In this document: positions 10,932 to 21,978 of the stretch, piece after piece | Position numbering within the stretch: position 1 is the stretch's first letter | Layout of the letters: each line of letters opens with the position of its first letter | IMG/VR virus record: IMGVR_UViG_2565956711_000012 | DNA from: a virus | Lineage: Duplodnaviria > Heunggongvirae > Uroviricota > Caudoviricetes | DNA: 29,461 bases | Direction: 5' to 3' (one strand) | The notes under the pieces: model-generated | Seen by the model: only the letters and a program-made list of their open reading frames with translations | Databases searched by the model: none | Told to the model about the DNA's origin: nothing | Program-made: the position numbers and the translations under genes

Positions 10932-11368
10932 AGCACCCCTTTCAGGTTGTTACGGGTGAACAGACGACGGTTTTCACTGACGATGATCAGCTTTCCGGTG
11001 TCGGTCTCAGGGACCGGGGTGTCAGACGGCACACCGAGGTCACGGGTGCCGTTGGCGATTTCACGCAGGGTGCGGAGGGCTTCGTCGTAACGCTTCTGGA
11101 TTTCATCGGTGATCTGATGGTCCCGTTCAGACAGCCAGTAGAACGCGATGGAAACCGCCGCCCGGCGCAACGGACTCGGCAGGCTCGGAAGGTTCAGCGG
11201 CAACTGATAACGCTTTGCCAGAAAGGAATTAATTTCTGCATCAGTGTCATCAATCGCACGCTGGATCTTTTCTTCGTCGAGCTGCTGCGTCTCTTTGTTG
11301 ATTGCCATGTTCCAGACGCGGTCACCATCGGTTGCCAGCAGGTCCTCACGCGTTACGTAGATGCCCAT
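10928..11368 (-). CDS. head-tail connector protein candidate (Mu gp36-like, DUF1320-like)
   Basis: 146-aa ORF, position after the gp35-like gene; overlapping start/stop. Confidence 0.55.
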   Translation of the reverse strand: MGIYVTREDLLATDGDRVWNMAINKETQQLDEEKIQRAIDDTDAEINSFLAKRYQLPLNLPSLPSPLRRAAVSIAFYWLSERDHQITDEIQKRYDEALRTLREIANGTRDLGVPSDTPVPETDTGKLIIVSENRRLFTRNNLKGVL

Positions 11369-11961
11369 TATTTGCTCTCCACGTCGGCTTCAGTCCCGGC
11401 AACGGTCGCCAGTTCGGTCACAATCAGCATCTTTTCAGCCTTCAGACGCAGGGCTGTGTCGGTACTGATCACGCACCCCTGTAGCGGATTACCACCGGCA
11501 TCTTCCAGAATCTGTTCATCCGGGTTATCGCTGACAAACACATGCACCGTATCGTGCGGCCAGAATCGGCCAGCCCGGCGAAAACCGTTTTCCGGAATGG
11601 CGCGGACCTCCAGCACCACGACATTTTCAGCAATGCGAACAGCCTCTGAATGGTCATGTGCCAGCGTCTCCTGCCAGAGATGTTTTCTCAGGTCATCACC
11701 CGTGTTCTCACCCGGTATGGTGACAAGACTGACTGTGGCCGGGATAACCGTTATTCCATTGTCATCGGGTACAGGTTCCGGGTCAGATGCGACATCTGAA
11801 GCTGCAACCGCCGGTTGTGATGCCTGACTGTCATCAGTAATAACTGGTGCCACCGGTGCCGGTTTCGCCGGGACAGGCGTATCCTTCGTTGCTTTGTCGT
11901 CTTTCTTTTCCGAAGTGGTTCCGGTCTTACCAGCGGCTGACTTATTAACTTTTCCACTCAC
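11368..11961 (-). CDS. head protein of unknown function (Mu gp35 position); GTG start
   Basis: 197-aa ORF starting with GTG preceded by GAGG 8 nt upstream; Lys/Pro/Ala-rich low-complexity N-terminus; located directly after the major capsid gene. Confidence 0.45.
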   Translation of the reverse strand: MSGKVNKSAAGKTGTTSEKKDDKATKDTPVPAKPAPVAPVITDDSQASQPAVAASDVASDPEPVPDDNGITVIPATVSLVTIPGENTGDDLRKHLWQETLAHDHSEAVRIAENVVVLEVRAIPENGFRRAGRFWPHDTVHVFVSDNPDEQILEDAGGNPLQGCVISTDTALRLKAEKMLIVTELATVAGTEADVESK

Positions 11962-11989
11962 TTTTTAAACCTCATTCAGGTTGGGTTTA

Positions 11990-12010
11990 AAGGAGGGTTA
12001 ACCCCTCCTT
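11990..12010 (-). other. GC-rich stem-loop between the major capsid gene and the next gene (possible attenuator)
   Basis: AAGGAGGG-TTAAC-CCCTCCTT: 8-bp perfect stem around an HpaI-like GTTAAC centre; no strong U-tract. Confidence 0.4.
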
Positions 12011-12039
12011 AATCCGGCATTACGTGATATTTTACGTAA

Positions 12040-12058
12040 TGACGTCATGCTTTGACGT
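12040..12058. repeat. direct repeat TGACGT-N7-TGACGT overlapping the capsid-gene stop codon
   Basis: Plus strand TGACGTcatgcttTGACGT; the first hexamer is part of the palindrome TGACGTCA; flanked by TTACGTAA-like palindromes. Confidence 0.5.
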
Positions 12059-12938
12059 AAGGTGAGACCAGCAGGTCAACATCCTTGTAATAGATGTTTG
12101 AACCACCACCATCAGCCGTAACCGCTTCAATCAGCGCCTTGGCCGCACCACGGTTGTTCTTACCGACGACCAGCAATGTCGGATTCATGCCCAGAGGTTC
12201 GCCGTTAGAGTCCGTGATACCCATCATTGCGGAGACAGCGGCTTCATAGTTCGCTTTGTTCAGTGCTGCTTTTGACCCCACACAGGTCTGCCAGAAACCA
12301 AAGCCAACGTTGCTGCGGCCATCGGTCCCGTAGGCGAATTCGTTCTGAAGGAACACACGCTCACTGGTGAGATCATCAAGGGCGATGAAGTTAAACGGAC
12401 GGCGCTCCTGGTAAATGATGGGCAGCAGCGCATGCGTTGCATCAATCAGGAACCACGGCTCACCCGTATCGGTCGCCGGGTCGCCCACAACGTTCGATTT
12501 GGTGGATGTACCAACAGGGTGATCAGTATCGAAGAAATACTGACCGTCCCAGCACAGCGTATCGAAGCCTTTGCACAGCAACTCAAACGACAGCTTGTCC
12601 GGGAAAATCGTGGTATCGCGGCCAAGCTGCTCAGCAATCACGGAATACTGACCAATCTGATCGTCCTCGATTTTTTCGCGCTTGACCTTGACCGAGTTTT
12701 CCCAGGTCTTGTTGGTAATGACATACCCGGCCTGAGCCAGTTCTTTCAGCTGACGCGCCCCGATCCATTCTTTGATGGTCGGGAAGTCTTCAACCCAGCC
12801 ATAAGTGTTAGACGCGCCGGAACTGGGGATAACCGTGGCGATGGATCGATACTGCGGATTGACCCGACCAACACCTTTGGTAAAGGCGGCGCTCAGTGCG
12901 GTGGTCAGGGCATGCAACACTTCTGCGGATACCTGCAT
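12045..12938 (-). CDS. T: major head (capsid) subunit, Mu T-like
   Basis: 297-aa ORF immediately downstream of the I-like gene; C-terminus SPYVKA-stop verified by hand; size and position match Mu T. Confidence 0.85.
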   Translation of the reverse strand: MQVSAEVLHALTTALSAAFTKGVGRVNPQYRSIATVIPSSGASNTYGWVEDFPTIKEWIGARQLKELAQAGYVITNKTWENSVKVKREKIEDDQIGQYSVIAEQLGRDTTIFPDKLSFELLCKGFDTLCWDGQYFFDTDHPVGTSTKSNVVGDPATDTGEPWFLIDATHALLPIIYQERRPFNFIALDDLTSERVFLQNEFAYGTDGRSNVGFGFWQTCVGSKAALNKANYEAAVSAMMGITDSNGEPLGMNPTLLVVGKNNRGAAKALIEAVTADGGGSNIYYKDVDLLVSPYVKA

Positions 12939-12941
12939 GAA

Positions 12942-13898
12942 TTATTTCTCCTGCTTACGAACGGAAAGGAATTCTTCTTCGCTGATGCCCATATGGCGGC
13001 ACATCGCGAGGTCTTCGTCAGAAAGCGAGGCATGACCTTCGGTGCTTTCTTTTTTGGTCGTCGTGGTCTTGCTGACAATGACCGGTGCCGCTTTCACGAA
13101 TTCAGCAAACTGCTTGCGGCCTTCTTCAGAGCGGCAGGTGGCGAGATACATTTCGCGGTTGGCCGGTGCGACTTTCCCCGCCTCGATGGCGCTGTCCACC
13201 AGTGCTTCTGATTCTTTGATGGCAATATCATTGAGTTTGCTTTCAGCGCTTTCCGCACGGTTAAGTGCTAACTGGTGAGTCTCAACCGGAATGAACTTCG
13301 TCAGGTCGGGATTCTCAGCACGGTTAAGCGCCACCTGCTCGGCGGTCTTAATCTGCTGAATGGCTTTTACTGCGTCGTCTGCTGTGGCAGTGGCCGCGAG
13401 GCCAAGCACTGTCACAATCTGGACAGGTACGGTCATCGTGTTTTCCTCGGAGTTGAGTGCGGGTAAATCAAGGTTGGGTTTGTTGGTCAGCGCGGCGCTG
13501 GACAGGCGGGTAACCTGACCATCCGCTGTGAACCGAAAGGCCGGACTGTAATAGCGGTACTTCTTGCCGCGCAGCTGCGCCACGCCGTCATCAGTCCATT
13601 CAACGTGCGCCTCCACCACGCCATCACTGACGCGATAGCCGTCAATCCAGCCATAAGCCGGGGCTTCATCGCCTTTCGGGCCTTTCAGTTCGGTGGAGTG
13701 CTCGATATCAAAGGGGAGCTTTGGATAAGCCATCGAGGCACGAATGATGGCTTCAGGATTGTTGTTCACCCACGAACGCCCATCACGCCCTGTAAAGGTT
13801 CCCGCCGGTATCATCGGCAGCCATTCCGGCAATGCATCATCGGTAAGGTCAGGAAGCTGAAAGCAGAGCGCCAGCAATTCCGTATTGTTCGGGTTCAT
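12942..13898 (-). CDS. I: head maturation protease/scaffold, Mu I-like
   Basis: 318-aa ORF; N-terminal protease-like region followed by a long Ala/Glu-rich helical C-terminus (scaffold-like); precedes the capsid gene. Confidence 0.8.
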   Translation of the reverse strand: MNPNNTELLALCFQLPDLTDDALPEWLPMIPAGTFTGRDGRSWVNNNPEAIIRASMAYPKLPFDIEHSTELKGPKGDEAPAYGWIDGYRVSDGVVEAHVEWTDDGVAQLRGKKYRYYSPAFRFTADGQVTRLSSAALTNKPNLDLPALNSEENTMTVPVQIVTVLGLAATATADDAVKAIQQIKTAEQVALNRAENPDLTKFIPVETHQLALNRAESAESKLNDIAIKESEALVDSAIEAGKVAPANREMYLATCRSEEGRKQFAEFVKAAPVIVSKTTTTKKESTEGHASLSDEDLAMCRHMGISEEEFLSVRKQEK

Positions 13899-13958
13899 GG
13901 TGTTGTCCGGTCACGTTGTTTACTTCCGGACAGTGTGGGGGGAAACGGGGACTCAGGT

Positions 13959-13974
13959 GGATTAACCGGCTTCA
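13959..13974 (-). promoter_or_regulatory. 16-mer TGAAGCCGGTTAATCC (copy 2, about 60 nt upstream of the I ATG)
   Basis: Exact repeat of the 16-mer upstream of the endolysin gene; here it lacks the hairpin partner and U-tract, so the shared element is not simply a terminator. Confidence 0.45.
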
Positions 13975-14042
13975 CTGTAAACGCGGCATGAAACCGCGTT
14001 TAAAACACGTTTAAAAACGCTGTGGCGCGTTTAACGATTTTT

Positions 14043-14061
14043 TGACGTGTCATCATGACGT
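14043..14061. repeat. direct repeat TGACGT-N7-TGACGT in the F-I intergenic region
   Basis: Plus strand TGACGTgtcatcaTGACGT; same hexamer pair with the same 13-bp phasing recurs at 12040-12058. Confidence 0.5.
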
Positions 14062-14107
14062 TATAATCGTTAATGCCGCCACGCGCGTTGTGGGATGGTT
14101 TTTATCT

Positions 14108-21277: not shown

Positions 21278-21868
21278 TCAGCTCCGGGCTACCGAATAGC
21301 GGACACCGGAAATCTCACGACAGGCGTCAGCGAGGTTGTCCAGTCGGTTAAACCAGCCGTTGAGGAACTTGCCCTGTGAAGGATTTGATTTGATGATGTC
21401 GGCGTAATAGCGGGAACGACGCAGAAATAAACGGTTCAGCAGCCAGTCAGGGTCAGCACCTTCAACGGCTGCGCGGGTGTTTTTACCGGCGATACCATCA
21501 ACACTTTTGCCGGTGAAACCCGCAGCTTCCTGAAGCAACTGGACAGCCTTTTTGACGCCATGCTGGACGGCAGAGTCAAAGGCAAACAGGGCTATATCAT
21601 CCGGCCAAAACTGGCAATACGCGGGATACCAGTAGTCACGGAAGTAAATCTGTCCGGCCTGTTCAACCGTTAAATCACGAATACGCGTATCAGGCTTGCC
21701 ATCGCCATTAACGTCGGTCATGCCATCGGCAACACCGTCGCGTTTATCTGATATACCGAAGTTGGTTTCACCGCCACGGTCAGTGGGGTCATTGACATAT
21801 CCGCGTTCTGCGCTGAGCACGAAAGCAAGAGCATTGCGAAATGCGGGAGAATCGGGGGTGTTGTTCAT
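21278..21868 (-). CDS. endolysin, GH108-type N-acetylmuramidase with C-terminal peptidoglycan-binding region
   Basis: 196-aa ORF; N-terminal ERGYVNDPTDRGGETNFGIS matches the GH108 catalytic motif as I recall it; no signal peptide or SAR segment; AGGTG about 7 nt upstream of ATG. Confidence 0.75.
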   Translation of the reverse strand: MNNTPDSPAFRNALAFVLSAERGYVNDPTDRGGETNFGISDKRDGVADGMTDVNGDGKPDTRIRDLTVEQAGQIYFRDYWYPAYCQFWPDDIALFAFDSAVQHGVKKAVQLLQEAAGFTGKSVDGIAGKNTRAAVEGADPDWLLNRLFLRRSRYYADIIKSNPSQGKFLNGWFNRLDNLADACREISGVRYSVARS

Positions 21869-21919
21869 AAAACGGCACCTTTGGAAGTGGGTTAGTTTTC
21901 CCTTCCATCATGTGCCGGA

Positions 21920-21946
21920 CGAAAAAAAAGCCGGATTAACCGGCTT
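21920..21946 (-). terminator. intrinsic terminator ending the early (mor-moron) transcript
   Basis: Minus-strand RNA: AGCCGG-UUAAU-CCGGCU stem-loop followed by 8-9 U; located 30-50 nt after the moron stop. Confidence 0.65.
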
Positions 21947-21948
21947 CA
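21933..21948 (-). promoter_or_regulatory. 16-mer TGAAGCCGGTTAATCC (copy 1, about 64 nt upstream of the endolysin ATG)
   Basis: Identical 16-mer occurs again at 13959-13974, about 60 nt upstream of the I ATG; candidate late-activator site. Confidence 0.45.
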
Positions 21949-21978
21949 TTCAATGGATATAACTAGCGAATTCACTCA

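Follow-up and report, generated by a model that had tools for sequence, protein, structure and literature searches.

The window analyzed here, a 29,461-nt stretch of viral DNA from a Mu-like transposable prophage, carries all of its annotated phage genes on the minus strand. Among them is the major head subunit gene of the Mu gpT family (12045 to 12938, minus strand), which was recognized from the open reading frame list, a Pfam match (PF10124, Mu-like_gpT; E = 2.1e-109), and the RefSeq annotation of a prophage in Escherichia coli ECONIH5. The protease gene (12942 to 13898, minus strand) precedes it, and an intercistronic spacer of 83 nt (11962 to 12044, minus strand), among the few noncoding gaps of the late region, separates it from the next cistron. 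Because the genes are on the minus strand, this spacer lies directly 3' of the capsid gene. The downstream cistron (11368 to 11961, minus strand) starts with GTG and encodes a protein of 197 amino acids at the position of Mu gp35. It was taken from the open reading frame list and matched PHROG 10420 (function unknown; E = 3.5e-84), and a Pfam search of the protein gave no match. The gene after it is a homologue of Mu gp36 (PF07030, Phage_Mu_Gp36).

The ECONIH5 prophage was 100% identical to the window over the 1.7 kb queried (11300 to 13000). Its RefSeq annotation describes a Mu-like transposable phage with transposase, AAA ATPase, Gam, Mor, lysis genes, terminase, and portal, followed by the gpF-like protein, protease, gpT capsid, gp36, sheath, tube, baseplate, and tail fibers. 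The prophage, of about 32 kb (NZ_CP026202.1, about 441150 to 473100), is inserted in narX (L165, 435 to 2147; L001, 1 to 392), with a truncated narX annotated at one end and narL at the other, so that the lysogen is probably without a working NarX sensor. Only 5 of the 5,426 complete E. coli genomes carry this prophage.

Structured elements of the spacer

The main hairpin of the spacer occupies positions 11990 to 12010 on the minus strand. In the mRNA, it consists of the 5' arm AAGGAGGG (12010 to 12003), the loop GUUAA (12002 to 11998), and the 3' arm CCCUCCUU (11997 to 11990), with a folding energy of -14.2 kcal/mol. On the plus strand, the arms read AAGGAGGG (11990 to 11997) and CCCTCCTT (12003 to 12010). 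They form a perfect 8-bp stem with five G-C pairs that extends imperfectly to 11986 to 12014. The preliminary description had reported an 8-bp perfect stem around GTTAAC close to palindromes and TGACGT repeats. All of these are present in the sequence; the loop is the 5-nt TTAAC, and the first letter of GTTAAC is the last G of the stem.

These features exceed chance expectation. Perfect hairpins with a stem of at least 8 bp and a loop of 3 to 8 nt occurred eight times in the window as distinct structures, compared with 2.9 ± 2.0 in dinucleotide shuffles, and two of the eight fell within the 83-nt spacer. The count becomes 11 if alternative stem and loop registers are included, and the shuffles were counted identically. 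A 111-nt region folded on the mRNA strand into consecutive hairpins with an energy of -33.6 kcal/mol (z = -4.5), and the opposite strand reached -39.8 kcal/mol (z = -5.9); on either strand, none of 200 shuffles was as good. By GC-corrected folding energy, the 90 nt from 11957 to 12046 ranked 5th among 1,959 sense-strand windows.

An Rfam scan of 11000 to 13000, with E values up to 10, returned nothing overlapping 11962 to 12044. No sigma-70 site was found between 9000 and 15000 by a method that is blind to activator-dependent late promoters, and the TAAAAT at 12034 to 12029 (minus strand) has, by eye, no usable -35 element. The GTTTAAAC-type motif was mildly enriched in the window (19 occurrences versus 8.7 expected), and this enrichment was not specific to the spacer.

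Several other gaps of the window are also structured. The gap between the gpF-like and protease genes (13899 to 14107, 209 nt, minus-strand sense) is strongly conserved across the enterobacterial clade and lies within about 130 to 330 nt of the prophage center, the place occupied in Mu by the P_I late promoter and the strong gyrase site. It contains three tandem (T)TTTAAACG motifs, the hairpin AAACGC-N6-GCGUUUUU, and a second hairpin, a 9-bp stem at 13978 to 14002; after these two hairpins come GTGAAGCCGGTTAATCC and, immediately upstream of the protease ATG, the hairpin CACACTGTCCG...CGGACA. In one IMG/VR locus of the Klebsiella clade (L103, about 300 to 700), the gap upstream of the protease gene is enlarged to about 570 nt by an A/T-rich insert with an apparent small open reading frame, which looks like a moron-type insertion at a conserved regulatory gap. 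A perfect 10-bp hairpin, AGCAACTGCC-GCAGG-GGCAGTTGCT (7297 to 7321), is located between the genes for the tail assembly chaperone and the tape-measure protein, in a gap of 86 nt where tail-chaperone frameshift extensions are usually found. Ahead of the GH108 endolysin gene, a 110-nt gap (21857 to 21961) ranked 2nd of the 1,959 sense-strand windows by GC-corrected folding energy and may be the leader of a lysis or late operon.

Conservation of the main hairpin

For comparison, 160 loci encoding relatives of the capsid protein were gathered from GTDB genomes and IMG/VR, and the DNA 3' of each capsid stop codon was examined. The aligned set comprised 40 distinct sequences including the window, with a capsid identity of at least 62% for the relatives. 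All 40 fold as a hairpin at the same position, and the stem is continuous over 10 to 18 bp in 38 of them; in the other two (L127 and L143), it is broken by a bulge or an internal loop. Counted by distinct spacers, the hairpin is present in 47 of 47 at a capsid identity of at least 62%. The spacer hairpins had a mean energy of -18.1 kcal/mol, compared with -12.0 kcal/mol for length-matched capsid-coding segments.

The stem sequences themselves vary widely among relatives, with AAGGAGGG, CAGGAGGG, CAGGCAGG, CAGCGGGC, AGCGGGUG, AUCGGGUG, and AAACGGUCU among the forms found. Throughout, the 5' arm is G rich and the 3' arm is C rich. The loop is A/U rich and centered on UUAA or UUA (UUAA, UUA, GUUAA, and CGUUAAA), and some relatives have GCAA, ACAA, or UCAA. 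As the first MAFFT alignment (A1) misregistered some stems, a stem-registered alignment (A4) was built; the alignment from the covariance-model search (A3) was left out of the counts, since it mixed both strands. In A4, 92.4% of the cells formed standard pairs, compared with 66.8 ± 1.9% when the letters of the 3' arm were shuffled, a level reached by none of 500 shuffles. Shifting the structures by 1 to 3 columns left a pairing of only 37 to 48%. Both sides had changed in 9 of the 11 pairs, and the covariation score was 0.60 versus 0.16. As an example of compensatory change, GGAGGGG/CCCUCC in the window corresponds to GGAGGAG/UCCUCC in one relative (L091).

A covariance model of the hairpin (R1) found its best match in the window at the main hairpin (34 bits; E = 6.5e-9). 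A single site was found in each close-relative locus searched; a weaker hit fell on a hairpin of the gap that precedes the protease gene. The hairpin is also present in the sequenced Klebsiella phage Kp4866-3, where R1 scored 42 bits. The hairpin is conserved by structure and not by sequence, as a single copy per phage at a fixed place. A dispersed REP or BIME repeat or a mobile element was rejected as an identity for it, given the single site per close-relative locus searched and the lack of an Rfam match; the spacer DNA occurs only in five E. coli genomes with the prophage.

In Mu, the interval between T and gp35 (NC_000929, 20056 to 20121) contains the hairpin AAAAGGCGGU-UCAG-ACCGCCUUUU (-16.2 kcal/mol), which, in the form UUAAAAGGCGGU-UCAG-ACCGCCUUUUAA, gave a z score of -6.3. 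It shares with the window hairpin the operon position, an A-rich flank, a G+C stem, and a U/A-rich flank followed by AACCUGA; the stem is succeeded by AACCUGAUUUAAAGGA, resembling AACCUGAAUGAGG in the window. The two differ in stem sequence and in the number of U residues after the stem (four in Mu and three in the window), and R1 scored the Mu hairpin at only 14.5 bits (E = 0.25). The two hairpins are probably homologous. The Mu hairpin is unannotated in the NC_000929 record, and literature searches turned up no account of a hairpin or terminator that follows Mu T or a homologous gene. Conservation in related phages, on which the preliminary description had made its reading depend, was therefore found: all close relatives, as well as Mu, retain the structure, and compensatory changes in it are abundant.

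Such a pattern raises the question of whether RNA or DNA is under selection. With the palindrome center defined in a strand-neutral manner and only interior positions counted, the positions that were not Watson-Crick on the mRNA strand comprised 16 G.U, 2 A.C, and 8 others. One U.G was inherited by eight sequences, which leaves roughly eight independent G.U events against two A.C. Since A.C on this strand is G.U on the opposite strand, the G.U excess suggests that selection acts on the sense RNA, although part of this excess could arise from a bias toward C-to-T mutations in the C-rich 3' arm. Mean folding energies over the 40 sequences (-19.35 versus -19.72 kcal/mol) did not favor the sense strand, and for the window sequence, the antisense strand gave the more stable fold.

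A palindrome acting at the DNA level, whether bound by a dimeric protein, extruded as a cruciform, or used as a signal for recombination or replication, would account for the near-equal folding of both strands, for the scoring of both strands by R1, and for the fact that the element, including its loop center, is often a near-perfect DNA palindrome (e.g., GCGGGTGTTTAAACGCCCGC). However, a protein operator would not permit half-sites to change as freely as they do among the relatives, where the arms vary while pairing is kept, and on this ground the main hairpin was rejected as such an operator. The 16 G.U against 2 A.C on the mRNA strand also speak against a DNA-level role, as do the single-copy nature of the element and the absence of similar sites from the operator region. 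Moreover, the hairpin lies about 1.8 kb from the prophage center (about window position 13770, beside the 13899 to 14107 gap), the expected place of a Mu-type strong gyrase site, and its identity with that site was rejected. We consider a DNA-level function highly improbable; the element probably acts as RNA.

The ACGT palindromes

Upstream of the main hairpin in the mRNA, a weaker hairpin or ACGT module, CAUUACGU-N8-ACGUAAUG (12018 to 12041, minus strand; -7.5 kcal/mol), contains TTACGTAA (12032 to 12039). Its plus-strand arms, CATTACGT (12018 to 12025) and ACGTAATG (12034 to 12041), form 8 bp with 8 nt between them. A further palindrome, described by ACGTCA-N7-ACGTCA and TGACGTCA (12040 to 12060, minus strand), covers the codons for the capsid C terminus (Y-V-K-A) along with the stop codon and is largely fixed by coding. 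Here TGACGT occurs at 12040 and 12053, and TGACGTCA (12040 to 12047) overlaps the capsid stop codon (TGA, 12047 to 12045, minus strand). Relatives whose capsids are 95% identical do not conserve this second palindrome. ACGTCA-N7-ACGTCA has exact copies at 12040 to 12058 and 14043 to 14061 (minus strand), whereas its 12 specified bases would be expected to match only about 0.004 times per window by chance. A regulatory site shared with the gap upstream of the protease gene was nevertheless rejected, because neither copy is conserved in relatives.

The history of the module differs from that of the main stem. TTACGTAAAAAAT-N-ACGTAA is retained at capsid identities as low as about 85%, including in relatives with an altered main stem. 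The pairing of the module is lost in one relative (L016) and weakened in another (L097), two more (L098 and L099) have only scattered TTACGT motifs, and the Klebsiella clade is devoid of the module altogether. In addition, TTACGTAAAA in the spacer repeats the capsid-terminal TTACGT(C/A)AAA (Y-V-K), with 10 of 10 positions identical in L095, which suggests that the spacer copy is a vestigial duplication of the end of the capsid gene. T-N-ACGT-N-A octamers occurred 12 times in the window (5.9 expected), and 4 of the 12 fall within 41 bp here.

The duplicated codons, the clustered octamers, and the retention of the sequence beside a changing main stem would all fit the idea that the ACGT palindromes (12018 to 12060) are an element separate from the hairpin device, which would be either a decayed duplicate of the capsid end codons or a site bound by some factor. 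Against this idea, they are restricted to a subclade with a capsid identity of at least about 71%, the second exact ACGTCA-N7-ACGTCA is not conserved in relatives, and the module also folds as a weak RNA hairpin, with one compensatory change from A-U to G-C. The module is also absent from the operator region of the prophage, and the octamers, which do not cluster in the c-ner intergenic region there, were rejected as a repressor or Ner operator motif. We give even odds to a separate element.

Possible roles in termination, translational control, and mRNA protection

The spacing of the hairpin relative to both genes was also compared. In the window, it lies 30 to 34 nt past the capsid stop codon, and in 38 of 39 relatives, it starts 14 to 42 nt past the stop codon and ends 16 to 26 nt before the next start codon (median, 23 nt over all 39). 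In the 39th relative, L143, the hairpin was misdetected (5 pairs; 9 and 47 nt). At a distance of 14 to 42 nt, the hairpin lies outside the footprint of the terminating ribosome and so would not be melted by it. The Shine-Dalgarno sequence of the downstream gene, GAGG (11970 to 11973, minus strand), is located 8 nt before the GTG start codon (11961 to 11959). Alignments A1 and A5 show no variation in either GAGG or the start codon, and both are unpaired or nearly so in the mRNA fold.

The AAGGAGG within the stem, previously singled out as Shine-Dalgarno-like, is present and does resemble such a site, but it is incidental. No ATG, GTG, or TTG follows at 5 to 10 nt on either strand, and a role as a ribosome-binding site or as the start of a small open reading frame was rejected. 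The motif is buried in the stem and restricted to a subclade with a capsid identity of at least 95%, while other relatives have unrelated stems in its place (CAGCGGGC, AGCGGGUG, and AUCGGGUG).

Translation of the gp35-position gene could still be set through the hairpin as an RNA operator, with a phage or host protein, or a ribosome standby site, recognizing the hairpin and its UUAA-type loop. The loop stays A/U rich throughout while the stem varies, and the distance from the hairpin to the start codon is narrow and varies less than that from the stop codon to the hairpin. However, the loops are not identical, some being GCAA, ACAA, or UCAA; the Shine-Dalgarno sequence and start codon are outside the stem and unpaired; no candidate RNA-binding protein was identified; and tight spacing is expected anyway in a compact phage genome. 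Control of this kind appears quite unlikely. A more specific form of it is more doubtful again, namely that the UUAA-type loop, the conserved UUA...UAA base, and the fixed spacing of 16 to 26 nt make the hairpin a specific operator through which a phage or host RNA-binding protein or ribonuclease times or limits the gp35-position protein. If true, it would represent a new cis-regulatory RNA family of Mu-like phages and not a passive decay barrier.

The main competitor to mRNA protection is a leaky intrinsic terminator, at which part of the RNA polymerase would stop and thereby lower transcription of the downstream head-completion and tail genes. The main hairpin has the G+C-rich stem-loop of an intrinsic terminator (8 bp, five G-C pairs, -14.2 kcal/mol), followed by UUUAAA in the window and by UUUUAA in Mu, and a similar design is seen in the hairpins of the gap that precedes the protease gene, one of which carries a run of five U. 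The U-tract of about 5 to 8 U, however, is absent after the stem, where the window reads UUUAAACCC, with three U, and a consensus terminator scan did not call the site. Efficient release by E. coli RNA polymerase requires such a tract. Moreover, only four late promoters (lys, I, P, and mom) are known in Mu, so its downstream genes would rely on read-through.

The close relatives point the same way. Among the 47 distinct close relatives with a capsid identity of at least 62%, all keep the stem and none has a U-tract after it; in the close clade, selection therefore keeps the hairpin and not a terminator. Farther away, at 50 to 62% identity (Vibrio, Rheinheimera, Marinomonas, and others), the hairpin was found in 24 of 26 spacers, 4 of them canonical terminators with runs of 5 to 6 U and 14 with a weak U stretch. 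Below 50% identity, it was found in 19 of 56, 3 of them canonical; 31 of this set had a gap shorter than 25 nt or a next gene start that could not be placed within 140 nt. Seven more distant relatives thus have a textbook hairpin with a run of 5 to 7 U at the same position, which favors termination. A structured 3' boundary after the capsid gene is a feature common to these lineages, some of which have true terminators. For the hairpin of the window, we regard leaky termination as unlikely.

The reading that we prefer, at a probability of roughly 0.45, is that the main hairpin is an intercistronic mRNA element that protects the 3' end of the capsid mRNA and causes at most weak termination, a function inferred from position and conservation. 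It is a stable stem-loop 3' of the more needed cistron, it is clear of the terminating ribosome, and its pairs show compensatory changes. In this mechanism, the hairpin would define and protect the 3' end of the protease-capsid message upstream of it. Transcripts that are cleaved, or now and then released, within the downstream A/U-rich stretch would be trimmed by 3'-to-5' exonucleases up to the hairpin, and intrinsic termination would be weak because the stem is not followed by a proper U-tract. The capsid mRNA could then outlive the downstream message for the low-copy proteins of head completion and the tail. Two observations stand against a pure decay barrier. The near-perfect DNA palindrome, with its often self-complementary loop (UUAA or UUUAAA), is not required for such a barrier, and termination is a possible alternative route, given the canonical terminators that distant relatives carry at this position.

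The preliminary description had proposed a partial terminator or mRNA stabilizer that raises capsid expression relative to the downstream genes. A canonical terminator is contradicted by the missing U-tract in the window and its 47 relatives, and the stabilizer fits better. The capsid protein is present in hundreds of copies per virion, whereas adaptor proteins number about 12, and the position of the hairpin, after the most abundantly needed gene of the operon and ahead of genes with far lower copy numbers, fits a raised capsid expression, which may follow from it.

Current ideas are not challenged by this hairpin. It provides a covariation-backed example of how Mu-like phages may set unequal amounts of capsid and downstream proteins from one late transcript, and it could be added to databases of RNA families to mark the gpT-gp35 junction. 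Among known systems, the T7 terminator T-phi after gene 10 is similar in lying directly after the major capsid gene, with a presumed purpose of high capsid expression with read-through. It differs in that the window and its 47 close relatives have no U-tract and in that host RNA polymerase, not a phage polymerase, transcribes the genes here. Intercistronic hairpins that stabilize upstream mRNA are known from the malE-malF REP sequences, pufBA, and papBA. Compared with REP sequences, the window hairpin is single copy, phage specific, and not dispersed, it has no Rfam family, and its stabilizing effect is a predicted one. The resemblance to all three lies in a stable stem-loop 3' of the more highly expressed cistron, which requires no U-tract and is expected to block 3'-to-5' exonucleases, increasing upstream expression relative to downstream expression. 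The hairpin is thus real but ordinary, a so far unannotated addition to the intercistronic hairpins and leaky terminators after phage capsid genes.
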